NCBI GenBank assembly: GCA_045540835.1
Contig: JAZQHX010000318.1
Span: 1-38,771 of the forward strand
Direction of reading: 5' to 3'
DNA length: 38,771 bases
Source: Acutalibacteraceae bacterium
GTDB taxonomy: Bacteria; Bacillota; Clostridia; Oscillospirales; Acutalibacteraceae
Positions 2,036 through 32,263 of this stretch are shown piece by piece. The notes under the pieces were generated by a model, which saw nothing but the letters and a program-made list of their open reading frames with translations, searched no databases and had not been told where the DNA came from. How positions within the stretch are numbered: position 1 is the first letter of the stretch; each line of letters begins with the position of its first letter. A program made the translations under genes and the position numbers.

Positions 2036-2980
2036 TCACAGATTATTAAGAATATCTATAACAGTTTCAAGCTCCTCGGGTTTTACCATATCGGGAGAAA
2101 TGTTGTTCTTAACACAGTCAGTAAAGTAGATGATTTCGTTAGAGTAAGCGTTGCTTTTAGGAAGGTTAATGCCGTCAACAGCATCGTTGCTTGCAAAGTT
2201 AATATCAACAACCTCGCCACCGCGCTTATATACCTTAAGTCCGTCATCCTCGTTTGAAACAACAGCATTCTCAAATTGGAATCGGAACTGAGCTTTGAAT
2301 TTATAGGGGGACGCATACCAAGAGGATTCAGTGTTTATACAGAACCCGTCAAACTCATAAACCGTGTTAATATAATCCTGATCCTTTTTCTTTGAGCGGA
2401 AGGTGTTAGACTTCTTCGGAGCGCCAAAGGCGTATACCATAAAATCAAGGTCGTGGATATGAAGATCATAGGGTACCCAGCCGCTACGTCTTTCATCTCG
2501 CATCCAGTCATCCCAGCTCCAACCTGGGAAGGCGCTAAGGCGCGTCATAGTACCTGAAAGAAGCTTGCCGAACTCGCCGCTATCGTATACTGACTTGAGG
2601 TATACGTATTCGGGCCAGAAGCGCAGAACCTGAGCTACCATAAACTTAACGTTGTTCTTTTGAGCGGTTTCGTAAACGCGCTTAACATCTTCCTGTTTCA
2701 GAGAAATAGGTTTTTCACAAAGCACATTGATTCCCTTTTCCATTGCTTTAACAGCAAAATCGGCGTGCATAAAAGTGGGGAGACAGATATCAAGAATATC
2801 AAGCTCCTCATTTTCAAGCATCTCATCAAAATCGGTGTACTTGCGGACATCCTCATATTTATCCATTCTTTCGGGGCGTACGTCACAAAGTGCCACAAGG
2901 CTTACACCCTCTAATTTTTTCCAAGAAGGAATGTGCGCGCCACTGATGTTTCCAACACCAACTAAACCAACCTTAAGCAT
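2036..2980 (-). CDS. Gfo/Idh/MocA-family oxidoreductase
   Basis: 314 aa with KVGLVGVGNISGAH and CEKPIS motifs. Lies in tandem with the previous paralog-like gene. Confidence 0.8.
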   Translation of the reverse strand: MLKVGLVGVGNISGAHIPSWKKLEGVSLVALCDVRPERMDKYEDVRKYTDFDEMLENEELDILDICLPTFMHADFAVKAMEKGINVLCEKPISLKQEDVKRVYETAQKNNVKFMVAQVLRFWPEYVYLKSVYDSGEFGKLLSGTMTRLSAFPGWSWDDWMRDERRSGWVPYDLHIHDLDFMVYAFGAPKKSNTFRSKKKDQDYINTVYEFDGFCINTESSWYASPYKFKAQFRFQFENAVVSNEDDGLKVYKRGGEVVDINFASNDAVDGINLPKSNAYSNEIIYFTDCVKNNISPDMVKPEELETVIDILNNL

Positions 2981-10940: not shown

Positions 10941-10969
10941 TTGACAATATTTTCGCTCTATGCTAAAAT
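10941..10969 (+). promoter_or_regulatory. Promoter of the small-toxin mRNA
   Basis: TTGACA (10941-10946), 17-nt spacer, extended -10 TGcTAAAAT (hexamer 10964-10969). Confidence 0.55.
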
Positions 10970-11070
10970 TTATTTGATGCAGCAATGCATCCCTAAGGGC
11001 TACCATAACGGGTAGGCGGTTAGCTCTCCATCTGGAGGGCGCTTTCCCTCCGGAAAGGAGGGCGGTGCCA

Positions 11071-11157
11071 ATGGTTACATATAATGATTTGTTCCTTTTA
11101 GGGACGCTTATTGTATCAATCATCGCACTTGTTGTTACTGTAAACAAAAAGAAATAA
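11071..11157 (+). CDS. 28-aa hydrophobic peptide, type-I-toxin / holin-like-toxin type
   Basis: Product MVTYNDLFLLGTLIVSIIALVVTVNKKK: one TM helix plus a KKK tail. SD AAAGGAGGG lies 8 nt upstream. A CCCTCC anti-SD (11046-11051) is flanked by two GGAGGG copies (11034-11039 and the SD at 11057-11062). Confidence 0.6.
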   Translation: MVTYNDLFLLGTLIVSIIALVVTVNKKK

Positions 11158-11235
11158 CCGCCCGGTCTCAAACAAGCGGTTATAACTTTTAAACCAATTT
11201 TTTGAGGGCTAACCGTCTATCGGTAGTCCTTTTGT
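11140..11235 (-). ncRNA. Predicted antisense (antitoxin) sRNA convergent with the toxin gene; ends approximate
   Basis: A perfect minus-strand promoter lies just upstream (11242-11270). The transcript would run into the toxin 3' end and stop codon, and end after the 11155-11182 hairpin plus a T-run. Confidence 0.45.
11155..11190. terminator. Bidirectional terminator-like hairpin shared by the toxin mRNA and antisense RNA
   Basis: 7-bp stem TAACCGC/GCGGTTA (11155-11161/11176-11182) with U-rich sequence on both strands. Confidence 0.4.
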
Positions 11236-11241
11236 ATTTGT

Positions 11242-11270
11242 ATTATAACACATTACGTGTGAGGTGTCAA
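11242..11270 (-). promoter_or_regulatory. Consensus extended -10 promoter for the antisense RNA
   Basis: Minus strand: TTGACA (11270-11265), 17-nt spacer, TGtTATAAT (hexamer 11247-11242). Confidence 0.6.
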
Positions 11271-11528: not shown

Positions 11529-11557
11529 TTGACAAAAGAGATAAAATATCATATAAT
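11529..11557 (+). promoter_or_regulatory. Consensus sigma-A promoter P1 (operon 1)
   Basis: TTGACA (11529-11534), 17-nt spacer, TATAAT (11552-11557). Confidence 0.7.
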
Positions 11558-11656
11558 AATTATGTTCTAAGGTTTGATTTAACTCCCGTTTAATCGGGCG
11601 TTTGTTTGAGTTAAGAGGTCGGATTTATCCTGTTAGGATAAGTCCGCTTTTTTGTT
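11552..11656 (+). repeat. Conserved leader, copy 1 (partner at 20839-20943)
   Basis: Manual alignment gives 103/105 identical positions. Both mismatches (11632, 11634) fall in the loop of terminator T1. Contains a nested stem TTAACTC..CCCG-TTTAAT-CGGG..GAGTTAA. Confidence 0.85.
11617..11653 (+). terminator. Leader terminator T1 (copy 1)
   Basis: About 11-bp stem CGGATTTATCC/GGATAAGTCCG followed by TTTTTT. Confidence 0.7.
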
Positions 11657-11690
11657 TTTAAAAGTTAATAAACCCAAGCGGCCAATCAAG

Positions 11691-11736
11691 ACCGTATCAG
11701 CACTATCCTTTGTGGTAGGTTGGTACGGTTTTTTTG
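11691..11736 (+). terminator. Leader terminator T2 (copy 1)
   Basis: Long interrupted stem ACCGTATCAGC.../...GTTGGTACGGT followed by 7 T. Confidence 0.65.
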
Positions 11737-11776
11737 TTTATATAAAAAACCGTAAAAGAAAGGACTGATGTAAAAA

Positions 11777-14776
11777 GTGTCAACCCCACCTCTGATTCGG
11801 GTATCCTGTCGGGATAAGGTCGAAAATATCGGTATTGAGACCTATTCGGATATGGTTGTATTCGATTCAGAAAAAACACTTGTTGCCATGAGAATCGGTG
11901 GTTATCCGGAATCGGTGCAGGCGATGTCTCAGGCAATCCAAACGGGATGCTCTCTTGAGCTTAAAGGCAAAAGAGAAACATTCCACGTACAAACCAAAGG
12001 CGGTAGAAAATATGAGAAAAGGACATCTCATGACGGCATTTATGCCGAAGGTATGTTTTACCTTAAAGACGATACCGCACATTCGCTGTCTCTTGATGAC
12101 GATGAGCGCAGCGAGAAGGAAGCAGTAGCCTTAAAGCAAAACCTATACTTTTTCTGTAGGGATGACGATGAACTGTATCAGGAGCTCGACAAAAAGCTTT
12201 CGGTGCCATTGATACCCGAGTTCAAAGAATATTTTCTTTCAGAATTAAAGCGTAGGAAACTACTGAAACCATTGCAGGTTTACTGTATCGGCAGAAAATT
12301 TGATGGCTGGGAAATGAGTATCTCAGACAACGAGGCAGCGGTTATAAAGGTTCTTGAGGACGGACTGAAATCGGGGACAATAGAAATCCCCGGCGGTAAG
12401 AACGGCAATCAGGCGGTATTTGCGAATATTAAAAGCTTTACCGACTATTTGCACGACTTTGGAACTATGATAGCTGACCGTATAAAACAGAATTTTCCGC
12501 CAAGATACAATCCCGCAGAGGAATCTATCTGTGCCGAGCTTAAAGAAGTCAATCAGTATGTAATAGACCATGCGGGCTATTCGCTTTTTGATGCGCAGCT
12601 TGGTGCGGCTGAAGGACTTAAAAGGCAGCTTCAAAAGGACAAGATGGCTTTACTTGTAGCTGAATGCGGCACAGGTAAAACCAAAATCGGCAGTGCGGCA
12701 ATATATGCACATCAGCACTCTAACCCCAAAAGCCGAGTATATAACAAGGCGTTCAATGTTATTATTTGCCCTTCACATATTACAGGCAAATGGGTAAGAG
12801 AACTGCATGAAACAATACCGAACTGCTATGCGGAACACGTTCAGACAATGGCTGATGTAGATGCGCTTTATGACCTTTATTTAAAGGAAAATAAAACAGT
12901 GTACTGTATTCTTTCCAAGGAAACCGCCCGTAACGGCTATATGAAAAAGCCTGCGGTTAAATGGAATAGAGTAAGGCGCGGATTTGAGTGTCCTCACTGT
13001 GGCGCCATACAAATGATGCCTATTATGGAAGATGGCGTTCAACTTCTTGTAAAAGCTAACGCTAATTACTTTCTGAACGAAACCGGCAGGAACCATAAGT
13101 GCCGAGACTGCGGCGAGCCCTTGTGGTCTATGATAAACCCAAATGACCTTTCCCCAAAGCGTAACGAATGGGTGCGAATAGGAGGGTATGGATTTGTTCA
13201 TAGACAGTTTTTAGGCGAGGCTATAAGCTTTTGCAAGAAAAAGGATGTTATGGCAAAAATATATGAAATAGCAGATAATCCCGACGGTGTTTTTCCTGCT
13301 GTCGGTGCTTATGAACGGTATCCGCTATCTGCATATATTAAACGCAGAATCAGGCACATTGATGCCTTGCTTGTGGATGAGCTTCATCAGTATTCCGGCG
13401 AGAGTGCTCAAGGTCAGGCTATGGCAGAGCTTGCAGGTATATCGGATAAGGTTGTCGGTATGACAGCCACCCTTATTAACGGATACGCAAAAGGTATTTT
13501 CTATCTTCTTTTCAGACTCAAGGCACACCTTATGCTGGAGGATAACCACCGTTATAATAACTCAAAGGATTTTTGTTATCAGTACGGAGTTGTCGAGCAG
13601 GTATATGAGGTTGAGGCAGATAAATATAACTCTGCTTCCAAATGCTCTAAAAAGAAGGTAAGGGAAAAGTTTTTGCCCGGAATATCCCCGATAGTGTATT
13701 CAAGATTTTTGCTTGAAAACGCTGTGTTTTTATCACTTGCGGATATGGGTAAAGAGCTTCCTGATTACGAAGAAATACCTGTTTTCTGCAAAATGCTCGA
13801 TGAAATATGCGACGAGTATAAGAGACTTGAAAATGAATTCAGGTCAATTATGGCAAAGTCGCAGAAAATCGGCAAACGTATTATGTCGGCATATATGAGC
13901 CTGCTAACAGCCTATCCCGACCAACCCTACGGACACGAGCCACTTTATAACCCATTTAACCGTGAAGAGCCCCTTATCGAACCTAAAGGCTTTGGCGACA
14001 GCGATGTGCTTCAGCCTAAGGATGAGCAGGTTATGGAGCTTATTGAAGGGAAAATTGCAGCAGGGGAGCGTGTAATAATATACACCGCTTGGACAAGGTT
14101 AGATACCCAGACGAAGCTGCATAAGGCTCTCACCGAAAAGGGCATATCTGCTGCAATTCTTGACCAAAGGGTGCCTACTGTAAAGCGTGAGGCCTGGGTA
14201 GATAAACGCTTAGCAGAGGGTGTTAAGGTTCTTATAGTAAATCCCGCACTTGTTGAAACGGGACTTGACCTTAATGCTTTTACAACCCTTATTTTCTATA
14301 ACATAGCCTTTAACTTATATATTTTCCGTCAAGCCGCAAGGCGAAGCTGGAGAATAAATCAGACAGCGCCAAAAGTTGAGGTGTATATGTTCTGCTATCA
14401 GGATACTATGCAGCAACGAGCACTTAAGCTTATGGCTTCAAAGCTATCGGCAGCTACTGTTATAGAGGGTAATATATCCGATGAAGGTTTGGCGGCGATG
14501 TCGGCTTGTGAGGATATGACTACTCAGCTTGCAAAGGAGCTTATGTTAGGGCTTAAGGATAATACCGAGTCTTTGGCCGAAAGCTTTAAAAAGATGGCTA
14601 TTCATAATGAGCGCAAAGCCGAGCCTGTTAAAAAGATTGTGGTAACGCTACCGCAGGTAGAAAAGCCAAAACCAAAACCGATAGAAACATCGGCAAAAAC
14701 TATTAAATTCAGAGAAACCACCGGTAATAAGTACGATACGGGTCAGCTTAGTATTTTTGACCTTATTGCATCTTAA
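11777..14776 (+). CDS. SF2 (SNF2/DEAD-like) helicase with an embedded zinc ribbon
   Basis: 999 aa with a GTG start. Motif I AECGTGKT, motif II LLVDELHQY, motif III MTATLING, C-terminal RecA-like lobe (LIVNPALVETGLDLN, FRQAARRSWRINQ). A CPHCG...CRDCG insertion lies between motifs I and II. Confidence 0.8.
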   Translation: MSTPPLIRVSCRDKVENIGIETYSDMVVFDSEKTLVAMRIGGYPESVQAMSQAIQTGCSLELKGKRETFHVQTKGGRKYEKRTSHDGIYAEGMFYLKDDTAHSLSLDDDERSEKEAVALKQNLYFFCRDDDELYQELDKKLSVPLIPEFKEYFLSELKRRKLLKPLQVYCIGRKFDGWEMSISDNEAAVIKVLEDGLKSGTIEIPGGKNGNQAVFANIKSFTDYLHDFGTMIADRIKQNFPPRYNPAEESICAELKEVNQYVIDHAGYSLFDAQLGAAEGLKRQLQKDKMALLVAECGTGKTKIGSAAIYAHQHSNPKSRVYNKAFNVIICPSHITGKWVRELHETIPNCYAEHVQTMADVDALYDLYLKENKTVYCILSKETARNGYMKKPAVKWNRVRRGFECPHCGAIQMMPIMEDGVQLLVKANANYFLNETGRNHKCRDCGEPLWSMINPNDLSPKRNEWVRIGGYGFVHRQFLGEAISFCKKKDVMAKIYEIADNPDGVFPAVGAYERYPLSAYIKRRIRHIDALLVDELHQYSGESAQGQAMAELAGISDKVVGMTATLINGYAKGIFYLLFRLKAHLMLEDNHRYNNSKDFCYQYGVVEQVYEVEADKYNSASKCSKKKVREKFLPGISPIVYSRFLLENAVFLSLADMGKELPDYEEIPVFCKMLDEICDEYKRLENEFRSIMAKSQKIGKRIMSAYMSLLTAYPDQPYGHEPLYNPFNREEPLIEPKGFGDSDVLQPKDEQVMELIEGKIAAGERVIIYTAWTRLDTQTKLHKALTEKGISAAILDQRVPTVKREAWVDKRLAEGVKVLIVNPALVETGLDLNAFTTLIFYNIAFNLYIFRQAARRSWRINQTAPKVEVYMFCYQDTMQQRALKLMASKLSAATVIEGNISDEGLAAMSACEDMTTQLAKELMLGLKDNTESLAESFKKMAIHNERKAEPVKKIVVTLPQVEKPKPKPIETSAKTIKFRETTGNKYDTGQLSIFDLIAS

Positions 14777-14810
14777 AACCGATGGCATTTTTTATTTAAG
14801 GAGAAATTAA

Positions 14811-15308
14811 ATGCTAAATAAATTGCGTGGAATTTTACGGCAAATTGCAATTGGAAAGGATAAAATAATCGAAATTTCCGCCTCGCTTGAGCCGGAGAAA
14901 AAATCCTGCAATATCACCGAACTTTTTGAAAGTATTGTAAAGAAGGTATATGAGAATCGAGAATCGCTCAAAAGATGTATTGTGGATTGCGATGTAAATT
15001 CAAAGAATTTCGCAATAATTACTCTTGATATGAAAAAAATATCGAAGCGTAAACAAAGACAGTACAATTTGCATCGATTGTTTGATGGCACTTTTAACAT
15101 ACAACGGTGTTCGTTTTGTGGCTGTCAATTTCTTACATACTTTCCCTATACTTACAGAGAATATGCGGGATGTGTCGGAAGGTCTTACGAATGTATAACG
15201 TGCAGAAATTTTGATAATAAATCAGCTCACGAAATTATTGTTGTTCGTAAAAAGAAAGGCGCAAAAGCCGCAAAAAAATTTCAATTAAAATTGTTTGAGG
15301 TGAAATAA
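14811..15308 (+). CDS. Hypothetical protein with a C-terminal Cys cluster
   Basis: 165 aa with RBS AAGGAG. Contains CSFCGC...CITC. No family recognised. Confidence 0.6.
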   Translation: MLNKLRGILRQIAIGKDKIIEISASLEPEKKSCNITELFESIVKKVYENRESLKRCIVDCDVNSKNFAIITLDMKKISKRKQRQYNLHRLFDGTFNIQRCSFCGCQFLTYFPYTYREYAGCVGRSYECITCRNFDNKSAHEIIVVRKKKGAKAAKKFQLKLFEVK

Positions 15309-15533
15309 ATGAGTTACATAAGAAAACCAAAAATACGGATAGATTTCGATTCCCCTGATGGCAATATTTTTGTAATAAGGGCAAAGGCAATAGGCGCTAT
15401 AAAAGCCTTTTACGTTCTCGATAAAGCAGAAAAGCTTAAAGAGTTTGATGAAAAATGGGAGCAGATAAAGGATAAAACCTATGAGGATGCTCTTAATGTT
15501 ATCAGAGAGTTTGTTGAGATTGAAGAGGAATAG
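15309..15533 (+). CDS. Hypothetical small acidic protein
   Basis: 74 aa with RBS GAGGTG. The start abuts the upstream stop. Confidence 0.6.
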   Translation: MSYIRKPKIRIDFDSPDGNIFVIRAKAIGAIKAFYVLDKAEKLKEFDEKWEQIKDKTYEDALNVIREFVEIEEE

Positions 15534-15541
15534 GTGAAATT

Positions 15542-16720
15542 ATGAAATTTACCGTAAAAAGAACCAAGATGCTTGATGCCATGAAAACGGTTTTAGCCGT
15601 TGTACCGGATAAAAGCTTAATTGAAGAAATCAGAGGTGTACTTTTCACCGTGAACGCAGGAACGGGAACGGTAAATGTTGCCGGTACTGACCTTCAGACA
15701 TGGATTGAAAAAAGAGTTCCGTGTGAGCATATAAGCGAGGATGGGGAATTGGTATTAAAGCCCATAGTATCGGATATGCTCCGTCTTATGTCGGGGGAAA
15801 CAGTAGAATTTGAGCAAACAGCGGGCGCACTCCGAATTACATGCGGCAGTACGGTATATGACGTTCCGTATATTGATGCTGCGAGTTTTCCAAAATGCAG
15901 TATCAAATATCCCGAAAATACAATACGCATACAGGGTATTAACTCCCTTATTAAGCGTACTGTATTTGCTGCAGAGGGTAAAACTGACGATAAAAACCGT
16001 GTGAAAATGCAGTTTGTCAAGCTTACCTTTAAAGGCGGTAATTCCTATGCTGAAGCAACAAACGGAAACTGTACGGCAATTTCTGCTTCTCTTCACTGCG
16101 CAGATGGTAATCTATCGCTTATCGTGCACGAAAAAGCACTGCAAATACTGTCTAAAATTGTTTCGCCAGATGATGAGATATATGTCGGCTCTGAAGGTAA
16201 GATAGCAGTATTTATGCGGCCCGATACCATGTTTATAACCCTGCTCCATACAGGCGATTATGTTGAGGGCAGCAAGATAATGTCCCGACTCAAAAGCGAG
16301 TACGGAGCAATAACGGATACCCGTAAAATGGCTGACCTTTTAGAGAATGCAACCTCACTTTTCAGGCCTACGGATGACCAATGTATAAACATTAGCATAC
16401 GTGGCGGAAAAATAACTGCAAGGGGGCTTACAAGTGTAGGCAGGAGTGAAGCATCCATTGATGCAACACATACTGTAGACACAGCGGAAGAGGGCTTTAA
16501 TTATAAGCCTAAACTTCTTCTTGATTGCTTAAAGCATTCAACAGGACCACTCAGGATTTCAATGGACAAGAGAGGTTTTTTAATGTTTGAGGCTAATCAA
16601 AGCAGATTTCTTGTATGTCCGCGCCGAGAGGTGCAAATCAAAAAGGAAGAGCCTAAAAAGGCGGCAAAACCCAAGACCAGAAAGACAAAGGCAAAGACCG
16701 CACAACCTGCAGCGGCTTAA
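15542..16720 (+). CDS. DNA polymerase III beta sliding-clamp homolog with a basic K/P/A tail
   Basis: 392 aa. The N-terminus MKFTVKRTKMLDAMKTVLAVVPDKS...GTDLQTWIE follows the DnaN pattern and the length fits three clamp domains. It carries an extra KKEEPKKAAKPKTRKTKAKTAQPAAA tail. Confidence 0.7.
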   Translation: MKFTVKRTKMLDAMKTVLAVVPDKSLIEEIRGVLFTVNAGTGTVNVAGTDLQTWIEKRVPCEHISEDGELVLKPIVSDMLRLMSGETVEFEQTAGALRITCGSTVYDVPYIDAASFPKCSIKYPENTIRIQGINSLIKRTVFAAEGKTDDKNRVKMQFVKLTFKGGNSYAEATNGNCTAISASLHCADGNLSLIVHEKALQILSKIVSPDDEIYVGSEGKIAVFMRPDTMFITLLHTGDYVEGSKIMSRLKSEYGAITDTRKMADLLENATSLFRPTDDQCINISIRGGKITARGLTSVGRSEASIDATHTVDTAEEGFNYKPKLLLDCLKHSTGPLRISMDKRGFLMFEANQSRFLVCPRREVQIKKEEPKKAAKPKTRKTKAKTAQPAAA

Positions 16721-16735
16721 AGTAGGAGGTAATTT

Positions 16736-18100
16736 ATGTTAAGAGATAAAATTAACGCAATAATATCCGAGGTTAACTCACAGCTTGCTGAAAGGGAGGA
16801 GCTTGTATATACCATAGCTTTAGCCCTTTTAACAAGAAAAAACCTGTTTGTTCTCGGCGACCCCGGACAGGCAAAATCTCAGGCTATAGACAGCTTCCGT
16901 TCTCATATACGGGATGCCAGACAGTTTGAGATTCTTATGAGCAAGGGTATAGACCAAGAACAGCTTTTCGGACGTCTTGACCTTGCAAGCATCATTCCGG
17001 GACATGTATCAGGCTCGGTATTAAATGATGATGAGGGCTATAAGCAGCTTTCTTTTGAGCTTGAGTGTGTACTGCGTGATGCTGCGGGCAATACCGATTG
17101 CGCTCAGTATTTTAACTCAATTCAGGTCAAACGGGAAAGGCTTGAGGAATACAGAAAGGCACTTGCCGAAATAAAGGGAAATGCTCCGCAGATTATTACT
17201 GCAGGGAAAATTCCCGATAGCCATATTTGTTTCCTTGATGAAATATTTAAGGCAAATGACGGCGTGCTTAACAGTCTTCTTAAAGCCCTAAACGAGCGCA
17301 CCTATACAAATGAGGGCGTTGTGGTAAATATCCCCGTTATCAGCTTTTTCTCGGCATCCAATGAAATACCCAATTTCAACAATCCCGAGGAAAAGTCATT
17401 ACGGGCATTATATGACCGTTTTGATTTTAAGGTGTTTACCCGAAATGTTGAGGCAAAGCAAAATCGAATGGATATACTGCGTAAAAAACAGGGCGGACAA
17501 GCGACAACAACCGTTACATACATTACCCTTGAAGAGCTTGCCGAGATGCAAAAGGCAGTAAGTGAGGTAAAGGTACCTGACAGCATCAATGAGCTTGCAG
17601 ACAATATTTTATGTGAGCTTCGCCGCAAGGATATATCTGTCAGCGACCGTACCTATTTTAACTTTGCGCCTGTTGTGCAGGCTAATGCATACCTTTGCGG
17701 CAGAGATACCGTAAAGCCTGAAGATATGAAGGCTCTTATCAATTATTTGTGGAATAAGCCCCACGAGTATGCGGTTGTAGAGCAAACAATATCGAGACTT
17801 ACGGAAAATCCCCTCGGAGATAAGCTTGATAAACTTTTAGCTGAAGCATTTGAGCATAAAAAGAACTTCGATGCTGCGACAGATAAGCTTCAGGCTTTGG
17901 TAACATTCAGAAAGAATCTTGTTAAGGTTTATATTGAAGCCGAAAAGCTAAAAGACGGATTGACAGAGGGCGATGCCGCAATAAGTGCAGTTGATGGTAT
18001 GATTTCGTCGCTTGAAGCTTTAAGTAAAGAGGCGCATGACAATACCGGATATACCTATTTGCCGCTTTCGGAACTAAAAGCGTTTTTCGCTGTAAAATAA
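16736..18100 (+). CDS. MoxR-class AAA+ ATPase, RavA-like
   Basis: 454 aa. Walker A LGDPGQAKS and Walker B/sensor FLDEIFKANDGVLNSLLKALNER closely follow the RavA pattern (GPPGIAKS; FLDEIWKA..ILNTLL.AINER). Confidence 0.8.
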   Translation: MLRDKINAIISEVNSQLAEREELVYTIALALLTRKNLFVLGDPGQAKSQAIDSFRSHIRDARQFEILMSKGIDQEQLFGRLDLASIIPGHVSGSVLNDDEGYKQLSFELECVLRDAAGNTDCAQYFNSIQVKRERLEEYRKALAEIKGNAPQIITAGKIPDSHICFLDEIFKANDGVLNSLLKALNERTYTNEGVVVNIPVISFFSASNEIPNFNNPEEKSLRALYDRFDFKVFTRNVEAKQNRMDILRKKQGGQATTTVTYITLEELAEMQKAVSEVKVPDSINELADNILCELRRKDISVSDRTYFNFAPVVQANAYLCGRDTVKPEDMKALINYLWNKPHEYAVVEQTISRLTENPLGDKLDKLLAEAFEHKKNFDAATDKLQALVTFRKNLVKVYIEAEKLKDGLTEGDAAISAVDGMISSLEALSKEAHDNTGYTYLPLSELKAFFAVK

Positions 18101-18120
18101 TTAAGAAATGAGGAAATATA

Positions 18121-18540
18121 ATGTTAAATTTAACAGTAATGACAGGTAGACTCACAGCAGATCCGGAACTCAGATACACAGAAGGTAATAATACCCCCGT
18201 TTGTAATTTAACTATTGCAAATCAGCGTAATTATCCAAACGCTGAGGGAGAGCGTGATACCGATTTCTTCAATTATGTTGCTTGGAGAAAAAACGCAGAG
18301 TTTATCTGTAAATATTTTAAAAAGGGTTCATTGATTACCTTGGTAAGCTCAGCACAAACAAGGCGTTATCAGGAGAACGAAACAGGCAAAACAAGAGTTG
18401 TGGTTGAATTTATTGTAAACCAGGCTCAGTTTGCCGAGAGTAAAAAGGGCGCCGATGGCGGAGAGCCTAGCGCAGATGCACCCGATGACATTGTTGCAGA
18501 TTTCGGCGATGTCAGTGCAGATGATGATCTTCCGTTTTAA
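18121..18540 (+). CDS. ssb: Single-stranded DNA-binding protein
   Basis: 139 aa. OB-fold start MLNLTVMTGRLTADPELRY, acidic tail ending DDDLPF. Confidence 0.9.
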   Translation: MLNLTVMTGRLTADPELRYTEGNNTPVCNLTIANQRNYPNAEGERDTDFFNYVAWRKNAEFICKYFKKGSLITLVSSAQTRRYQENETGKTRVVVEFIVNQAQFAESKKGADGGEPSADAPDDIVADFGDVSADDDLPF

Positions 18541-18555
18541 ATTCGGGGTAATACT

Positions 18556-18798
18556 ATGACAGCAAATATTGTAAGACTTGATATTGTTGATAGCGGCCCT
18601 GAAAAAGAATCCGAACGAATATTATCTACATTTTATTTGCTAAATCCTGATATGAACAAGCTCAATGATTATAAGCAAAGGCTTGAAAAAAGAGAGGATG
18701 CTTTAATGGATGAGATTGACGGTATTTGGGATATTGAAGGTTATATTACAGATAACTTTGAGACGATAGATGTAGAAACGATTGAGTTTAAATGGTAA
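18556..18798 (+). CDS. Hypothetical small acidic protein
   Basis: 80 aa, lying in the operon frame. No family recognised. Confidence 0.5.
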   Translation: MTANIVRLDIVDSGPEKESERILSTFYLLNPDMNKLNDYKQRLEKREDALMDEIDGIWDIEGYITDNFETIDVETIEFKW

Positions 18799-18818
18799 TA
18801 ACCGAAAGGAGTAATATT

Positions 18819-18995
18819 ATGAGTACCGATAGAATTTATGTTACAAATCTAACTATAATGGGCGAGAAGGTAAGAGTTGATTTTTCTGATGGTGACCACA
18901 CCTTCGTAACCTACAATGATTACAACCGTGCCTTGATGGCTATTGCGAATGCCAGCAAGGAAGAAATAATCCGCGATTTCGCAATTAAGTCCTGA
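18819..18995 (+). CDS. Hypothetical small protein
   Basis: ORF trimmed to the ATG at 18819, which follows RBS AAAGGAG. 58 aa. Confidence 0.5.
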   Translation: MSTDRIYVTNLTIMGEKVRVDFSDGDHTFVTYNDYNRALMAIANASKEEIIRDFAIKS

Positions 18996-19015
18996 TTATC
19001 TTATAAAAAATAAAA

Positions 19016-19043
19016 CTCACGGGCAGGGAAACCTGTCCGTGAG
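19016..19043. other. Perfect 12-bp hairpin without a plus-strand U-tract
   Basis: CTCACGGGCAGG-GAAA-CCTGTCCGTGAG. The A-run 5' means it would act as a terminator only on the minus strand. On the plus strand it may be an RNA stability or processing element. Confidence 0.35.
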
Positions 19044-19067
19044 CAGTAAAAATAAACGGAGGACAAA

Positions 19068-20612
19068 ATGAGAAATCGTAATATTTTCAGAGATTTTGGC
19101 GAAGCAGATAACTGGCTTAACAGCCACCTGCTTACAAATCGGAACCCTATAACAGATAGGCTTTTTCAATCAACAAGGCTTACCGACCTTATCTACTCGG
19201 GACTTTCCTTTGAGGATGTGTTCTATAACACTGAAAACCTCAAATTCCCTGTAAATACTGAAAGAATATCGCAAGATATGTTTGGAGCATTGTTTTCGCC
19301 GGTTATAAGGAAAAACGATAACGAATCACTTTTCAGGCGGGAAAGAATGTTCAATAAGCCCCTTATGGACAGAGTGCTTCGGGATGATAGGTTTGATACC
19401 CTTAAATCCCTTTGCGAAGATAAGGAAATGACAAGCTATGATGCTGCCTCGGTTTTTGCACATACCTTGCAGGAACTCCTAAACGAAAAGCCCTATGAGC
19501 CTGAAAGAAATTATCTTATTGTTATTAAAACGCTCGAAGGGCAAATCGAAGGCGCAATTGCTGAAATTCAGGCAATGAGAGCAGATAAGAAGATAAATCC
19601 CGATAGATATCTTGTTTTAGTTAATAAGATACGCGCAAAGCTTTCTCAGGTAAAGAATCTTGAGAAAAGGCTTAAAAAGGATGCTCTTATTTATATTCAA
19701 TCCATAGAAGAGGATATAAATATTGCCTTGGATACTGCAGTAAACCGTGCCGCTGAAACCCATAGCATAATGTCTGCTTGGGGAAATGACAGTGGTGAAA
19801 TGAAAAGCACACCCTTAAACCGTGACCTGCTTGACTATGTCAAAAAGAGTGAAGAACTCAGGCGCATAGCAGTGTTGCTTGGCCGATACCGTGAAATAAT
19901 TGCGGATAAGCGTAAAAACGGTTATGCATACGGGCTGGGAGAGAAGTATGACCTTACTACAGGAAACGATATAACTAACTGCCTGTCAAGTGAGTTAGCA
20001 CTCCTCGGAACACCCGAAACCGAAATTCTTTTTATGCGAAAATATGAGCAAAAAAGACTTCAGCAGTACCGTAAGCGCACGCAGGTTATAAAGGGTAAGG
20101 GAGATATGATTGTCCTTGTGGACGAAAGCTCCAGTACCCGAAGGGTTACAGGATGGGCAAAAGCGTTTACACTCGCTCTCTTGGATATTGCGGCACGTGA
20201 TAAACGCAAGTTTGCTGTGGTGCACTTTGCATCTGCAAGGGATATCAAGACTGATTTATTCGAGCCTGATAAATACACATCACAGGATGTAATGAAAGCC
20301 GCTGAACATTTTTGGGGCGGCGGTACAAATTTCGAAGCACCGTTTAAAGAGGCTATACGGCTTATGGAGAACGGATATGAAAATGCGGATATTACGATAA
20401 TAACCGATGGTGAATGTGAAATGTCCGACACTTTCTGCGAGGAGTTACATACCAAGCTTCAAAGCTATAAGGCTACCGTTACGGGAATTCTTTTAGATAA
20501 GGATGAGCCCTGCGGTACGGCGCTTGAGCCATTCTGCAATAAAATCTATCATTCGAAAGAGCTCACCGAAGATGAAATTGCAATAGATATCATCCAAGGA
20601 AAAGCTGCTTAA
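19068..20612 (+). CDS. von Willebrand factor A (VWA) domain protein, ViaA-like partner of the AAA+ ATPase
   Basis: 514 aa. The C-terminal VWA has MIDAS motif VLVDESSST, then GGGTNF and ITDGE. Confidence 0.75.
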   Translation: MRNRNIFRDFGEADNWLNSHLLTNRNPITDRLFQSTRLTDLIYSGLSFEDVFYNTENLKFPVNTERISQDMFGALFSPVIRKNDNESLFRRERMFNKPLMDRVLRDDRFDTLKSLCEDKEMTSYDAASVFAHTLQELLNEKPYEPERNYLIVIKTLEGQIEGAIAEIQAMRADKKINPDRYLVLVNKIRAKLSQVKNLEKRLKKDALIYIQSIEEDINIALDTAVNRAAETHSIMSAWGNDSGEMKSTPLNRDLLDYVKKSEELRRIAVLLGRYREIIADKRKNGYAYGLGEKYDLTTGNDITNCLSSELALLGTPETEILFMRKYEQKRLQQYRKRTQVIKGKGDMIVLVDESSSTRRVTGWAKAFTLALLDIAARDKRKFAVVHFASARDIKTDLFEPDKYTSQDVMKAAEHFWGGGTNFEAPFKEAIRLMENGYENADITIITDGECEMSDTFCEELHTKLQSYKATVTGILLDKDEPCGTALEPFCNKIYHSKELTEDEIAIDIIQGKAA

Positions 20613-20620
20613 AACCAAAA

Positions 20621-20656
20621 GGAGATACCGCCATAAACGGTATCTCCTGATTTTTT
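20621..20656 (+). terminator. Intrinsic terminator ending operon 1
   Basis: 10-bp perfect stem GGAGATACCG/CGGTATCTCC followed by TGATTTTTT. Confidence 0.75.
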
Positions 20657-20815
20657 GCATAATATAAGGGGCGCCGCCAACCCCTCAGCGACACCCCATT
20701 AAAAAGGACAAATACAAAATAGCATATATTTGTTGCTTTGTCAAATAATTCAGGGGTGTTTTTGAAAATTATTTTTAAAAGAATTCTTACACGGATTTTA
20801 GTGTTCTCTCAGCGC

Positions 20816-20844
20816 TTGACAACACCTTAAAAATACAGTATAAT
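20816..20844 (+). promoter_or_regulatory. Consensus sigma-A promoter P2 (operon 2)
   Basis: TTGACA (20816-20821), 17-nt spacer, TATAAT (20839-20844). Confidence 0.7.
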
Positions 20845-20943
20845 AATTATGTTCTAAGGTTTGATTTAACTCCCGTTTAATCGGGCGTTTGTTTGAGTTA
20901 AGAGGTCGGATTTATCCTATAAGGATAAGTCCGCTTTTTTGTT
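20839..20943 (+). repeat. Conserved leader, copy 2 (partner at 11552-11656)
   Basis: 103/105 identical to copy 1. A second short conserved block TTAATAAACC(C)AA(R)CGG follows in both copies (11664-11681 / 20969-20985). Confidence 0.85.
20904..20940 (+). terminator. Leader terminator T1 (copy 2)
   Basis: Same stem as copy 1 with loop ATA instead of GTT, then TTTTTT. Confidence 0.7.
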
Positions 20944-20998
20944 ATCTGCCATAAGCAGATTAGTAAATTTAATAAACCAAACGGTAATTCCAAAGAAG

Positions 20999-21040
20999 GA
21001 CCGGCTTTCACTGTGCTCAGTTGAAGGTCGGTCTTTTTTT
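20999..21040 (+). terminator. Leader terminator T2 (copy 2)
   Basis: 12-bp stem GACCGGCTTTCA/TGAAGGTCGGTC (two G:T) followed by 7 T. Confidence 0.65.
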
Positions 21041-21075
21041 GTTTTACAAATAAAATACGAAAGGACAAAACCATC

Positions 21076-22392
21076 ATGAGCGAAAACAAAAACCCCTTCG
21101 GCGATTTTTTAGACCTAGGAGATAACGGTGACGTAGGCAATCTTTTTGCCGAACTGGACTTTCCTGAGACACCCGCCGAAAAGACAGAACCCCAAACCCC
21201 GGCGCAGACAGAAACTGCGTCAAATGAGCCTGCGAAGCAGGAAAGTAAGGCCGAAGTGAGCATAGCTGAGGGAAAGGCGGCACCTGCCGAAACAGCAGAC
21301 GTTGACCCCTTTGCCGCGGCACTTGCCAAAGCGCAGGAAGCCAGCAATCAAAGACTGGCAGAAAGCTTTGCTGCAAAACCTGCAGTTTTCACCTACGGCA
21401 AGGCAAAAGACCCTATAGAAGACAAGGATTGCACCTTTGAGGAGCTCCGCCAGAAGTATGAGGGAGATTTCCCTGAATTATCTGACGCCAAAAGAGTAAC
21501 ATGGACAGTTACTTACGGTAAATCCTCTAAAACCATAGCTAATCCCGGCTCGGACAGGGTATATGAAATTAAAGAGGAAATTGAAAAATCCAAGACCTTT
21601 CTCGATGGCATTAAAAAGGCAAAGAAGGATGAAGAGAAGAATCCTGAATGTATTATTAAGCCCAGCGTGAGAGCACAAAGCAAGGGTAAGATTATAAGAC
21701 TTCCCGAGTATAAGGATTTTCAGTTTACCGAATCTGATGCACGTGCATCGGATAAACCAATAGTTCTTCTCCCGTCGAAAGACGGGAGAATCTACCAAAT
21801 GCGAAAAACACCTGTAGGAGTGTTTACGGCTCCCGCTGAAAACATCAAGGAATTTGATGAAATTCAGTCCGGTTTTCATATGTGTATGCCTAAAATCCCA
21901 TTTAAAATATTTTTCTTTATACTGAACTTTTTCAGAGCAGTATCAGATAAATATGCATACGAGGCTTTGGCGCATATTCTTTATGATACCAACGAACAGC
22001 GGTATGTTGTAAAGATTCCAAAGCAGCGGGTGTCCCACGCAAGTGTAAACTCGGTTATGGATTCAGACTATCCCGACCACCTTATCCACGTTATGGATAT
22101 ACATTCCCATAACACAATGCCCGCAGAGTTTTCGGGTATTGATGATGACGACGAAAAGGCTACAAGGCTTTACGGAGTTATTGGCCGACTGGATAGGATA
22201 TTACCGGATATAAAGATCAGAGCAGGTTGCGCAGGCAGCTATATCTATCTTAAGCCCGAAGATATCTTTGATGTCGAGGATGCCGACCATCCTTATCCTA
22301 CAGAATGGGATGAGCAGATAGTAGCGATGGAAATGCCAAAATTTAAAGGCTTTTTTCCTAAAAGGCTGCGTGCAAAGGATGTGTATATATGA
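21076..22392 (+). CDS. JAB/MPN (JAMM) metallopeptidase-domain protein with a long low-complexity N-terminal region
   Basis: 438 aa. Exact JAMM motif H343-S-H345-x7-S353-x2-D356 (HSHNTMPAEFSGID, nt 22102-22143) with upstream Glu in AYEALAH. Residues 1-100 are E/A/P/T-rich. Confidence 0.75.
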   Translation: MSENKNPFGDFLDLGDNGDVGNLFAELDFPETPAEKTEPQTPAQTETASNEPAKQESKAEVSIAEGKAAPAETADVDPFAAALAKAQEASNQRLAESFAAKPAVFTYGKAKDPIEDKDCTFEELRQKYEGDFPELSDAKRVTWTVTYGKSSKTIANPGSDRVYEIKEEIEKSKTFLDGIKKAKKDEEKNPECIIKPSVRAQSKGKIIRLPEYKDFQFTESDARASDKPIVLLPSKDGRIYQMRKTPVGVFTAPAENIKEFDEIQSGFHMCMPKIPFKIFFFILNFFRAVSDKYAYEALAHILYDTNEQRYVVKIPKQRVSHASVNSVMDSDYPDHLIHVMDIHSHNTMPAEFSGIDDDDEKATRLYGVIGRLDRILPDIKIRAGCAGSYIYLKPEDIFDVEDADHPYPTEWDEQIVAMEMPKFKGFFPKRLRAKDVYI

Positions 22393-23189
22393 GGATGTCG
22401 AGAACCTCTCCCGTTAAAATTATTGTAATAGGAGCAGGCGGAACGGGCGGTTATGTTATACCGCACCTATACCGTTTGTCTTATGCTTTAAGACGGGATA
22501 TAAGAGTTATTATCTGCGATGGAGATTTGGTAGAGGAAAAGAACCTTATAAGGCAGAACTTTATTGCTCAGGACATCGGGAGAAATAAAGCGCAGGTACA
22601 GGCTGAACGGTATTCAGCGGCCTTTGGTATCGAGTGCGAATATATCCCGAGATATGTTGAGAGCGTAGAAAATCTTGCAAGTCTTGTAAGACCGGATTTC
22701 TATAAAGGCAATCAGCATATTGAAACGCAGGATGTTATCCTGCTCGGCTGTGTAGATAATAATAATTCCCGTCAGATTTGTCATAAAGTATTCGGCAAAC
22801 AAAAGGATATTGTTTACATAGATTCGGGCAACGGAGAGCATACCGGTCAGGTTGTATGCGGAGTAAGGCAAAAGGGAAAAACGGTATATAAATCGGTTTG
22901 TACGAAGTATCCTGATATGCGTAAAAAGACCGATAAATTACCTTCAGAGCTTTCCTGTGCAGAACGCAGCGTATCTGCTCCACAGAGCGTTACGGCAAAT
23001 TTAATGGCAGCAACTGCAGTTGTGAGCTTTCTTTACGATTTGCTTGTATGCGGAGAGCTTAAAACCGAATCGGTAACCTTTTCTTCAAAGCAGATAAATA
23101 TGCGCCCTGAGTTTGAAGAGCCGCCTAAACCAAAGGCGAAGACAAAGCCTAAAACCAAAGCAGCCAAGACTGCGAAACGAAAGGAGTAA
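22389..23189 (+). CDS. ThiF/MoeB/E1-like adenylyltransferase
   Basis: 266 aa with a 4-nt ATGA overlap with the JAB gene. Rossmann motif VIGAGGTGG and DGDLVEEKNLIRQNF (the DxDxV...NLxRQ motif of E1-like enzymes). Basic tail PPKPKAKTKPKTKAAKTAKRKE. Confidence 0.75.
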   Translation: MRMSRTSPVKIIVIGAGGTGGYVIPHLYRLSYALRRDIRVIICDGDLVEEKNLIRQNFIAQDIGRNKAQVQAERYSAAFGIECEYIPRYVESVENLASLVRPDFYKGNQHIETQDVILLGCVDNNNSRQICHKVFGKQKDIVYIDSGNGEHTGQVVCGVRQKGKTVYKSVCTKYPDMRKKTDKLPSELSCAERSVSAPQSVTANLMAATAVVSFLYDLLVCGELKTESVTFSSKQINMRPEFEEPPKPKAKTKPKTKAAKTAKRKE

Positions 23190-23192
23190 CCT

Positions 23193-23414
23193 ATGAAACA
23201 GCAAGAATTTATTGTTTCCTACGATAAGCAAAAATGCCGTATTAACGGTCAGACGGGTACGATTAAAACGGTCCGTATCGAAGAGGTATTACCTGATGGT
23301 ACTAAAAAGACCGTACATACCGATGTGCGTTATATCAGCAGCGGTAAACCTAATCCCTTAAGGAATCTTATAAGCATTATAAGTACACCTAAAAAGGATA
23401 GGAGAGCTGCCTGA
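23193..23414 (+). CDS. 73-aa protein of unknown function directly after the E1-like gene
   Basis: RBS AAGGAG. Predicted mostly beta and ends RRAA. No Gly-Gly terminus. Confidence 0.55.
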   Translation: MKQQEFIVSYDKQKCRINGQTGTIKTVRIEEVLPDGTKKTVHTDVRYISSGKPNPLRNLISIISTPKKDRRAA

Positions 23415-23839
23415 TGACATACGGATATTGGCGTCCCGTTTGTGCTGCAAAGCTTCCTGCCTGCGATGGATTTTTAATAAGCTCCAAGGCGATATATAAA
23501 TCGAATATTGATAAGGATTGGAATACCTTTTTAAATCAGCTTATTGCTGAGCTACAGAGCAGAGAACCAAGCCTTAAGCAAATATGCGATTGGAAGCTTT
23601 ACAGTGAGGAAGATAAACTGTTTGTGGTACTTAAAAATGAATCCGTGGATATTATCGTTGAGGATGTGCCGGGCTTTGTTGCAGTTTACGTTATTGTGCC
23701 AAAAGAGTGCAAAATTAAAAGAACAGCAAAAAAGCAGCATCCGAGATATACCGAAATTCTAAAAATGAGCCTTTCAAAGTTTTATAAAGGAAATATCTAT
23801 AAGAGAATAGATACCCGAAATATAGAGCTTGCAGGTTAA
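23414..23839 (+). CDS. Hypothetical protein
   Basis: 141 aa. Its ATG overlaps the upstream TGA by 1 nt. Ends ELAG. Confidence 0.55.
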   Translation: MTYGYWRPVCAAKLPACDGFLISSKAIYKSNIDKDWNTFLNQLIAELQSREPSLKQICDWKLYSEEDKLFVVLKNESVDIIVEDVPGFVAVYVIVPKECKIKRTAKKQHPRYTEILKMSLSKFYKGNIYKRIDTRNIELAG

Positions 23840-23883
23840 ACCGAGGTCGCAGTTAATGCGGTCTTTTTTATTTGGAGGAAAAT

Positions 23884-26311: not shown

Positions 26312-26336
26312 ATTTAAAGAAAAGAGGACAAATAAA

Positions 26337-26852
26337 ATGTTAAAACAACCCCGGAAATTAACAAATGAAGAGGCTGCTTTTGCGGCCGAAAATCACAGTA
26401 AAATATATGACTTTCTTTATGAAAACGGACTGTCTTGCGATGATTTTTATGATGTTGCCGTTTTCGGATATTTGAAAGCGGTGCAATTATATTTTGAGGG
26501 CGAAATGTCCTGCGATTTTATAGAAATTGCAGGTCGTGAGATGCTTTCTGCCTGCGTAAGCGCCGAAGAAGAAAATAGCCTTCTTGCCGAGCCTGCATCC
26601 TACCTTGAGGATACTATTGCAGATGCAAAATCTATTGCCGAAGAAGCAATAAAAGCGGTGGATTTAGATAATACACTGGCGAGCTTTTCGGCAAACGAAC
26701 AGCGTATCGCAAGGCTTGTTGTAAGCGGATATTCGGTAGAGGATATTGCCGATATTTTCGGTATGGGCACAGGTACTGTTACAAAACTTGTTTTGGATAT
26801 GTGCCGCAGACTTGAAGGTAACAGCTTTTCTCCCGTAATGATTGCAGCGTAA
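26337..26852 (+). CDS. Sigma-70-family / sigma region-4 HTH protein
   Basis: 171 aa. The C-terminal NEQRIARLVVSGYSVEDIADIFGMGTGTVTKLV fits a region 4.2 HTH, and the N-terminal half is region-2-like. Confidence 0.55.
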   Translation: MLKQPRKLTNEEAAFAAENHSKIYDFLYENGLSCDDFYDVAVFGYLKAVQLYFEGEMSCDFIEIAGREMLSACVSAEEENSLLAEPASYLEDTIADAKSIAEEAIKAVDLDNTLASFSANEQRIARLVVSGYSVEDIADIFGMGTGTVTKLVLDMCRRLEGNSFSPVMIAA

Positions 26853-26877
26853 AACACAAAAAAGAAAGGACGATTTT

Positions 26878-27704: not shown

Positions 27705-27715
27705 GAGGTGCCATT

Positions 27716-28947: not shown

Positions 28948-28959
28948 GGAGAGTAAGCT

Positions 28960-29814: not shown

Positions 29815-29841
29815 ATTCGAAAACCGAAAGGACAAAAAATT

Positions 29842-30435: not shown

Positions 30436-30445
30436 GGAGAATAAT

Positions 30446-32257: not shown

Positions 32258-32263
32258 TAATCT

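Follow-up and report, generated by a model that had tools for sequence, protein, structure and literature searches.

A putatively terminator-gated leader with a tri-box RNA signal heads both core operons of mobile elements in Clostridia

How can a consensus promoter serve a long operon when two strong terminators stand between it and the first gene? This question is raised by a 38,771-nt stretch of DNA from an Acutalibacteraceae bacterium (assembly GCA_045540835.1, contig JAZQHX010000318.1), the whole of which is referred to here as the window. Within the window lies an island of ~26 kb (~8.3–34.5 kb), which adjoins a tRNA-Pro gene and carries two operons read rightwards, each headed by one promoter-leader-terminator cassette. 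An original prediction, made by a model from the letters of the DNA, took the first of these cassettes for a candidate antitermination switch. Here, we describe the cassette as a putatively terminator-gated leader of mobile-element operons with a previously undescribed tri-box RNA signal. Among homologues, the invariant columns lie outside the hairpin, in three short unpaired G/U-rich boxes (AGGUUUGA, GUUUGA and AGGUCGGA); a full-text literature search found no description of such a tri-box leader.

The leader cassette and its two copies

Promoter P1 occupies positions 11529–11557 of the plus strand. It is, as had been predicted, a perfect TTGACA-17-TATAAT sequence (TTGACA 11529–11534, 17-nt spacer, TATAAT 11552–11557; score 12/12), and its transcription start is predicted at G11564. 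The −35 and −10 hexamers are kept in homologues. Promoter P2 of operon 2 (20816–20844, plus strand) is just as perfect, and the window holds three such sites where ~0.016 would be expected on both strands from base composition. A repeat finder pairs 11529–11656 with 20816–20943. In pairwise alignment, 103 of 105 positions are identical from the −10 hexamer to the end of the U tract of the first terminator, and both mismatches fall in the loop of that terminator, just as the original prediction had described. The −35 and spacer region, and all sequence 3′ of the first terminator, are far less alike between the copies.

Read along the plus strand, copy 1 begins with box 1 (AGGTTTGA, 11570–11577), ~6 nt from the predicted 5′ end of the RNA. 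The hairpin CCCG-TTTAAT-CGGG (11585–11598), whose fold is kept in homologues, separates it from box 2 (TGTTTGAG, 11603–11610), which mostly reads AGGTTTGATG in relatives. Box 3 (AGGTCGGA, 11616–11623) forms the base of the 5′ arm of intrinsic terminator T1 (11616–11656; 12-bp core stem 11620–11646, U tract 11648–11653, −19.1 kcal/mol), and the T1 stem is followed by CTTTTTTG (also given as CUUUUUUG). The conserved, A-rich block 2 (GTTAATAAACCCAAGCGG, 11664–11681) lies just 5′ of intrinsic terminator T2 (11690–11736), which has an A tract upstream, a 19-bp stem with one bulge and seven U residues (−24.1 kcal/mol). T1 and T2 both have the marks of an intrinsic terminator, namely a G+C-rich hairpin, an immediate U tract and covariation, and the predicted succession of T1, block 2 and T2 between promoter and first gene is upheld, with both terminators bona fide. 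The 3′ arm and U tract of T2 are overlapped by an 11-nt inverted repeat (TACGGTTTTTT at 11724–11734 and AAAAAACCGTA at 11744–11754, plus strand; −10.7 kcal/mol). This pairing had been assigned to copy 1 only. It is real. Copy 2 and more distant homologues lack it, but it also occurs in a near-identical relative (L226) and is best described as lineage-specific.

Copy 2 of the 5′ module (20845–20943, plus strand) contains the same parts in the same order (box 1 20857–20864, hairpin, box 2, box 3, T1 stem 20907–20933). It is 98% identical to copy 1 and scores 83.6 bits with the covariance model described below. Its block 2 (20968–20984), which reads ATTTAATAAACCAAACGG, and its T2 together span 20968–21041 of the plus strand, and the JAB gene starts at 21076. 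The T2 of copy 2 has another sequence and is stronger, with a ~23-bp stem, seven U residues and a free energy of −31.4 kcal/mol; this operon-2-type sequence is kept in L009, L012, L013 and L024.

The 213-nt leader as a whole folds better than its shuffles (z = −5.05, 0/200). The original prediction also drew a nested stem at the 5′ end of the RNA and saw in the conserved 5′ RNA the recognition element. The inner hairpin of that stem is indeed conserved; the outer helix TTAACTC/GAGTTAA (an extension spanning 11579–11614) is lineage-specific: homologues do not keep it, nor is it the minimum-free-energy choice. Thus, the 5′ RNA is a conserved cis-regulatory leader as proposed, but its invariant part consists of the three boxes and not of the nested stem.

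Homologous leaders and their conserved parts

The helicase encoded by the first gene of operon 1 has at least 972 homologues. We compared 80 genome loci, mostly from Oscillospiraceae, Ruminococcaceae and Acutalibacteraceae, with cultured strains among them. Upstream regions of homologous loci align to the window leader at 65–77% identity, and a covariance model built from 16 homologous leaders detects 27 plus-strand leaders in the window and 23 genome loci. Scanning metagenome contigs with a degenerate pattern and filtering the matches with the same model adds 49 further leaders, and the covariance model and pattern scans together give a total of ~110 homologous leaders from genomes and metagenomes. 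The covariance-model search that had been suggested as a check therefore does find the leader in homologous elements, and with compensatory changes. Two copies are seen in every element whose contig reaches far enough (the window, L004, L009, L013, L016 and L024). For the 44 metagenome leaders that are followed by a callable open reading frame (ORF), a crude ORF rule identifies the first ORF as a helicase in 17 cases and as a JAB protein in 19, leaving 8 unassigned. Wherever the downstream gene is assignable, the leader lies directly 5′ of a helicase or JAB homologue, and it occurs nowhere else in the sequence searched. Because the assigned first ORFs are helicase or JAB homologues, we conclude that the cassette is a dedicated leader of these two gene families.

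The two copies of an element resemble one another most in the 5′ module, which is 84–99% identical between copies in 9 of 11 elements; the promoter spacer and the T2 module are much less so. Such concerted similarity would be expected from a shared specific partner or from gene conversion alike. In one metagenome contig (L185), leaders at 838–937 and 2748–2846 (minus strand) lie 1.9 kb apart, each before an N-terminal fragment of the helicase, an arrangement that may be a duplication or an assembly artefact. Searches with the leader by blastn (word size 11, E ≤ 0.01) gave no match among 50,697 phage records or among 72,556 PLSDB plasmids, and the exact leader pattern was not found in viral contigs. 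At the gathering threshold, Rfam matched only tRNA, and the best score of a permissive search was 21 bits against a cut-off of 59.

Covariation supports the RNA structures. In a model-guided alignment of the covariance-model matches, 93.5% of cells form standard pairs and double-sided changes are seen in 11 of 14 pairs. These values are reached by none of 500 shuffles, and the covariation signal collapses when the pairing partners are slid. Each of the 22 distinct homologues forms a hairpin between boxes 1 and 2. This hairpin shows compensatory changes, and its stems and loops are unrelated in sequence (the loops include UUCG, UUUU, AUUU, UUUAAU and GCCU). For T1, 8 of the 11 modelled pairs have double changes; the upper stem covaries, while the base, formed by box 3, is nearly invariant. 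T2 is present in every homologue, with stems of 17–27 bp, free energies of −24 to −42 kcal/mol, an A tract on the 5′ side and a U tract on the 3′ side. Its base, GACCG...CGGUC, is conserved family-wide and its top is variable. Operon-1 and operon-2 types were mixed in the MAFFT alignment of the T2 region, and the pair counts do not draw on that alignment. G-U pairs and U tracts are confined to the plus strand, which indicates that the structures act in the sense RNA.

The boxes themselves follow simple rules. Box 1 is (U)AGGUUUGA, of which AGGT is invariant in 16 homologues. Box 2, on the 3′ side of the hairpin, is (A/U)GGUUUGA, with UGUUUGAG as the version in the window. Box 3, AGGUCGGA, follows 15 nt after box 2 and is nearly invariant; in three subfamilies it serves as the 5′ arm of T1. 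Essentially all leaders have 12–13 nt between the −10 hexamer and the first AGG (13 nt in 30 of 31 distant leaders). In the close group, the spacing of boxes 1 and 2 ranges over 29–45 nt in step with the length of the hairpin, which favors recognition on RNA, with the hairpin looped out, over recognition on duplex DNA. Block 2 is also conserved across the family, as AATAAATCCCAACGG or ACGGACAATAAAA (AAUAAAUCCCAACGG or ACGGACAAUAAAA in the RNA).

More distant members retain the boxes in other arrangements. The 31 Oscillibacter-type leaders carry three to four tandem AGGGCGGAG units with a period of ~15 nt, followed by a hairpin that lacks a U tract. These leaders are without T1, and their sole terminator, T2, lies 100–135 nt after the boxes. 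Lachnospiraceae-type leaders contain repeats of UGGUUAAAG or UGGUAAGCAG, the third of them within the 5′ arm of a terminator. Certain Lachnospiraceae-type loci (L032, L036, L037, L039, L035 and L068) have no tri-box leader upstream of the helicase. A ~34-aa hydrophobic peptide ORF (e.g. MKLVENILKAAAALIASAMAIVKFVNIIRKMATA) is found there instead, and after it, immediately 5′ of the ribosome binding site (RBS) of the helicase gene, comes a hairpin with a short U tract. The promoters of Oscillibacter-type elements (L050, L058, L054, L067, L062 and others) carry an inverted repeat at approximately −60 to −40, on the 5′ side of a TATACA or TTTACA −35 element. Examples are GTTGAG-N5-CTCAAC, GGTGGA-N5-TCCACC and GTTGGA-N5-TCCAAC. 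Each repeat is element-specific and identical at both promoters of its element, and for this reason is a probable operator. Xre-type genes are common near these promoters, and promoter control and the leader may act together in Oscillibacter-type elements.

How the leader may act

We tentatively propose, with somewhat less than even confidence, that the leader puts both core operons under termination control and that its boxes form a nut-like loading site for processive antitermination. Host sigma-A RNA polymerase would start at the consensus promoter, and the first ~60 nt of the RNA would carry the three single-stranded boxes, which the looping-out of the hairpin between the first two would leave at effectively even intervals. 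By default, as the two strong intrinsic terminators lead us to infer, a ~90-nt transcript would end at T1, and any read-through would be stopped at the long-stemmed T2. A multidomain or multimeric RNA-binding activity may capture the boxes while the polymerase is still promoter-proximal, a timing suggested by the fixed promoter-to-box distance. Since box 3 is the T1 5′ arm, capture of the boxes would also block T1. The antitermination activity would then stay on the elongation complex, which would pass T1, T2 and internal terminators such as the one at 23843.

Two observations make a processive, nut-like site the most economical reading. One is that internal terminator, an intrinsic terminator of operon 2 (23843–23872, plus strand; also given as 23843–23865) located directly 5′ of the RBS of the radical-SAM gene. 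A hairpin with a U tract occupies the equivalent position in L009, L171, L191 and L120, and the feature is kept in 5 of 10 homologous operons. The other is the position of the boxes in the distant relatives, which are more than 100 nt from the sole terminator and would therefore have to act at a distance. The comparison with HK022 put made in the original prediction is apt, as is one with nut-type sites. As a separate observation, the base of the internal terminator, GACyGCA...UGCGGUC, resembles the base of T2. Promoter-RNA element-terminator designs in mobile elements also have precedents (PMC11658703, PMC8191782).

Several points weigh against this proposal. Termination and read-through are both predictions: that the operons would be silent without a factor, and that RNA polymerase would be made terminator-resistant. 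A terminator with a 15-bp stem withstands processive antitermination by the conAn system of pLS20 (PMC10325885). The 17–27 bp stems of T2 are beyond that length, and may call for a separate mechanism or for leakiness. Many relatives carry an Xre-type repressor gene together with an operator-like inverted repeat at the promoter, and so the leader need not be the main switch. Lastly, no factor was identified: a Zn ribbon protein encoded next to the leader is lineage-restricted, a sigma-like protein of operon 2 is not universal, an S1-like protein of relatives is absent from the window, and the ORFs screened gave no match to the Q, N, NusG-paralogue or any other antiterminator family.

Several readings of the leader were rejected. 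A boxA/NusB reading of the 5′ end is not conserved, and neither are the small ORFs on which a leader peptide or upstream ORF would depend. No upstream segment is complementary to the T1 5′ arm, and block 2 does not covary with that arm; T1 is therefore not under the control of an RNA-only alternative fold. Counts of boxes and anti-boxes in the window are at chance level, which gives no sign of an anti-box small RNA there.

Other mechanisms can be weighed against the same evidence. A cis-acting RNA of the put, canT or EAR type might suffice alone: the leader would bind RNA polymerase and make it terminator-resistant at each firing, and the terminators would only insulate the operons, filtering read-in and spurious transcripts. 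Such logic is documented for HK022 putL/putR, Tn916 canT and pLS20 conAn2. It would sit well with the lack of a universal element-encoded factor and with the control of the promoter itself, in relatives, by an Xre-type repressor and operator-like repeat, and the fixed promoter-box distance could limit modification to polymerases started at their own promoter. We nonetheless consider it rather unlikely. Known RNA-only antiterminators are elaborately folded, whereas here there are three unstructured boxes and a hairpin free in sequence and loop; read-in transcripts would also carry the leader, so that insulation fails unless loading is coupled to initiation; and a constitutive antiterminator right before two very strong terminators looks futile. 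Local, non-processive attenuation strikes us as quite unlikely. Here, a box-bound protein (HutP-like, or an inverse of TRAP) would sequester the T1 5′ arm, and T2 would be dealt with separately via block 2, for example by a factor that stabilizes a weak helix between CGG of block 2 and CCG of the T2 5′ arm. The identity of box 3 with the T1 5′ arm is in line with this scheme. So is the 3–5 bp complementarity between block 2 and T2, which is found in 18 of 18 distinct sequences, exceeds that of shuffled blocks (p ~0.01) and includes apparent double changes (TGGT/ACCA in L024b, CCGT/ACGG in L075). However, although every sequence can form the block 2:T2 helix, it does not outperform pairings obtained by permuting the partners (p = 0.24), and we do not retain it. 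Moreover, the distant relatives have boxes and no T1, and the conserved internal terminator would go unexplained.

It is also conceivable that the boxes are operators in the initially transcribed DNA, bound as direct repeats by a roadblock repressor or by a Q-like loader, with the 171-aa sigma-R4-like protein of the element in a role similar to that of Q21. The boxes do form 8-bp direct repeats, placed at a constant distance from the −10 hexamer, and Q21, which has a sigma-R4-like fold, binds two 8-bp direct repeats beside a sigma-dependent pause (bioRxiv 10.1101/651190). The element does encode an ECF-sigma-like protein, and its constitutive promoter, short RNA, terminator and long operon reproduce the lambda PR′-tR′ layout. 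Even so, this seems very improbable to us, for the 29–45 bp between boxes 1 and 2 follow the length of a covarying RNA hairpin, the promoter spacer (the expected site of a Q binding element) is only 57% identical between copies, the sigma-like gene lies in the middle of operon 2 and is missing in L130, L165, L032 and L036, and there is no Q family match. The chance that the ~90-nt, T1-terminated RNA is itself the product, as a stand-alone small RNA or a decoy (e.g. a sponge for a box-binding protein) with the downstream genes expressed by leakage, appears slimmer still. A consensus promoter and a strong terminator do bracket a conserved 90-nt RNA with repeated motifs, and the 5′ module does evolve in concert between the two copies; but in the distant relatives, which are without T1, no discrete short RNA ends there, the leader always lies directly before the helicase or JAB gene where this can be assigned, and the window has no complementary or box-rich targets elsewhere. 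Finally, the cassette could be a passive attenuator, in which two leaky terminators set a low, low-noise constitutive level, the 5′ hairpins are protective, and nothing is switched. No regulator was found in the window, and a consensus promoter with terminator read-through of a few per cent could suffice. We regard this possibility as improbable: it gives no reason for the boxes to be invariant, for their number, spacing and fixed promoter distance, or for the concerted evolution of the 5′ module.

Compared with known systems, the proposed nut-like leader appears to share the logic of nut, put, PR′-tR′/Q, conAn and canT while falling outside each of these groups. Like lambda nutL and nutR, which act with N, it consists of two near-identical RNA sites just 3′ of two promoters, with a box and a hairpin, and with terminators before long operons. 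It differs in that the resemblance to boxA (UGUUCUUA) is partial and not conserved among leaders: some members have TGTTCTTA, others TTACT, TACTT, TAACT or ATTTG. Furthermore, there are three repeated boxes in place of one boxA, there is no conserved GNRA-like boxB loop and no N-like gene between the site and the first terminator, and the host is a Gram-positive bacterium of the Clostridium class. HK022 putL and putR likewise occur as two copies, each straight after a promoter and before terminators, with no obvious protein factor from the element. A put site, however, is two adjacent specific stem-loops (~70 nt) that bind the beta′ subunit of RNA polymerase, whereas the leader has one short hairpin of free sequence and unpaired boxes, and its next hairpin is a terminator with a U tract.

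Closer in host range are the pLS20 conAn system (ConAn1 and conAn2 RNA, with the cATT zipper attenuator upstream) and Tn916 canT (T1–T3), in which Gram-positive mobile-element operons have leader and internal terminators that are overcome by a leader-encoded RNA element. In contrast to our leader, conAn2 and canT are hundreds of nt long and belong to conjugation operons. The leader operons do not begin with a ConAn1-like gene, but with the helicase or JAB gene; their terminators lie between the element and the first gene; T2 has the long stem that confers resistance in pLS20; and no zipper-type alternative pairing was found in the leader. As to homology with the canT region (452 bp), the leader matched nothing in the plasmid and phage collections, which perhaps do not contain Tn916 itself. 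Lambda PR′-tR′ with Q (also Q21, Q82 and AlpA) shares the strong constitutive promoter, the short terminated RNA before a long operon and the fixed promoter distance. As a candidate for a −10-like, sigma-dependent pause element near the promoter, the close group has TAAGGT or TAGGTT (TAnnnT) at about +5 to +11; the distant group reads CAGGGC or TAGGGC. Unlike in Q-type systems, the repeat spacing follows the RNA hairpin, no site embedded in the promoter is conserved (57% between the −35 and spacer regions of P1 and P2), and no Q or AlpA homologue is present. TRAP and HutP targets, finally, also consist of multiple, evenly spaced, short single-stranded repeats of which the last overlaps a terminator arm. 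Here, though, the repeats are 8-mers at a spacing of ~15 nt and not triplets at 5–7 nt, relatives of the leader lack the overlapped terminator, and no cognate ring-shaped protein was detected in the window.

What might read the boxes? The original prediction named a 54-aa Zn ribbon protein and the sigma-like protein as candidate factors, and neither holds up as a general one. The Zn ribbon gene has its own promoter and lies immediately upstream of the leader. It has no homologue in the 80 related loci, and among 5.8 billion proteins it forms 3 clusters, all with the same arrangement; to judge by this distribution, it is a lineage-specific addition. The sigma-like protein (171 aa), which resembles ECF sigma factors and is no more than sigma-R4-like, is encoded 5.5 kb inside operon 2. 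It is missing from several leader-bearing relatives (absent after the methyltransferase gene in L130, L165, L032 and L036), and it is not supported as a universal partner. Searches for other readers were negative within their scope. Among ~40 ORFs screened, none matched NusG or KOW models, and the JUMPstart model of Rfam had no match. No ORF screened matched the Q family in Pfam or PHROGs. The small ORFs matched nothing in Pfam, PHROGs or NCBIfam, although N-type arginine-rich proteins are too divergent to be excluded in this way. Searches of PDB sequences with the N-terminal domain of the helicase, the sigma-like protein and the Zn ribbon gave nothing useful.

Clustering of upstream ORFs groups Xre-type repressors (13 loci), Tn916 Orf7/Orf8-like regulators (7 loci) and a 291-aa protein (19 loci) with two to three S1 repeats that match models of ribosomal protein S1 (E 1e-10 to 1e-13). 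The S1-like gene lies 5′ of the first leader, on the same strand and 0.1–8.8 kb away, in 33 of 225 loci (L015, L018, L023, L043, L050 and 28 others). In conjugative relatives it is the last gene of a VirD4/RepA_N/DUF5697 block. In L050 the protein measures 494 aa from the first in-frame start, and is probably over-extended. A tandem-S1 protein would be an attractive reader of three single-stranded boxes. This idea stays speculative, since the S1-like protein is not encoded in the window. Candidate readers are then the S1-like protein of conjugative relatives, a product of the operons themselves (which would give positive feedback) and host proteins of the S1 or NusA type. Taken further, the tri-box leader could be the RNA half of a new bipartite system of processive antitermination, of which the upstream S1-like protein is the other half, with one S1 repeat for each box; islands that lack the protein would be satellites, their replication/recombination and ubiquitin-like operons switched on in trans by a helper conjugative element or, under some condition, by host S1/NusA. 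We think this extended scheme unlikely as it stands.

The leader heads the core of widespread elements, namely a helicase/DnaN/MoxR/SSB/vWA operon and a JAB/E1/E2/methyltransferase/Rad52/SMC-like operon. It is a compact RNA motif that is abundant in gut Clostridia and has separable parts (boxes, hairpin and two terminators), and its presence in several cultured strains makes it directly testable. Such carriers include Massiliimalia massiliensis Marseille-P2963 (L024, with both leaders), Solibaculum intestinale CLA-JM-H44 (L016), Clostridium leptum DSM 753 (L007) and Flintibacter muris DSM 110149 (L050, which also has the S1-like gene). If the boxes do load an antitermination activity, they would represent a new RNA signal, possibly with a new protein reader, among the few processive antitermination systems. 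It would also account for how costly replication and anti-defense genes stay off in these abundant gut elements while they are integrated.

Gene context and neighboring features

Operon 1 (11777–20612, rightward) encodes a 999-aa SNF2-like helicase with Zn ribbons, a DnaN-like clamp, a MoxR ATPase, SSB and a vWA protein, and ends at a bidirectional terminator (20620–20656, listed on the plus strand). Operon 2 (21076–34404, rightward) encodes the JAB protein, a ThiF/E1 protein, the radical-SAM enzyme, a DUF6094 methyltransferase and the ECF-sigma-like protein, and also a prokaryotic E2, Rad52, an SMC-like ATPase, DUF3854 and DUF6744. The terminator at its end (34442–34495, plus strand) has an 18-bp stem (−28.2 kcal/mol). 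The island also contains a gene for a large serine recombinase, read leftwards.

The start region of the helicase gene (11758–11779, plus strand) comprises the RBS GAAAGGAC (11758–11765) and a GTG start at 11777. Directly 3′ of the RBS is an ATG-TAA start-stop (11768–11773), which shares the reading frame of the helicase and precedes its GTG/TTG start by two codons. The same ATG-TAA is present in L001, L005, L013 and L021, and L003, L004, L010 and L015 have ATG TAT, which reads straight on.

At the other end of the proteins, 8 of ~21 products of the two operons (ORFs in 15542–34404) terminate in Ala-Ala: DnaN (..AAA), vWA (..KAA), a 73-aa ORF (..RAA), the sigma-like protein (..IAA), a 198-aa ORF (..KAA), Rad52 (..LAA), DUF3854 (..LAA) and DUF6744 (..FAA). 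Homologues do so too (also in L032 and L171). These C-termini look like built-in, ssrA-like degradation tags.

Upstream of the first cassette, 10941–11270 resembles a type I toxin-antitoxin module. A promoter (10941–10969) is followed by a long 5′ untranslated region, a strong RBS, a hydrophobic 30-aa peptide (MPMVTYNDLFLLGTLIVSIIALVVTVNKKK, 11065–11157) and a bidirectional terminator (11154–11183). A convergent, perfect TTGACA-17-TATAAT promoter on the minus strand (11270–11242) would yield a short antisense RNA. The sole hint from Rfam is a sub-threshold match to BsrG. The adjoining segment 10470–10900 contains no convincing gene; its six-frame translations match L001, L003, L004 and L013 (42–75%), and Rfam has no match. 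A conserved non-coding region may therefore separate the integrase promoter from the toxin-like module.

Between operon 1 and P2 lies a small transcription unit on the minus strand (20744–20660), conserved in L009, L012 and L016. It has an invariant TTGACA −35 element and a −10 element of TATTTT, TATAAT or TATACT, followed by 5′-UGUCCUUUUUAAU and by a 10-bp G+C-rich hairpin (20697–20668) with a U-rich tail. Its single-stranded segment GUCCUUUUU is complementary to the conserved helicase RBS AGAAAGGAC and to AAAGGACAAA of the JAB gene (10 nt). The unit is a candidate for a trans-acting small RNA that would block translation of the first genes of both operons.

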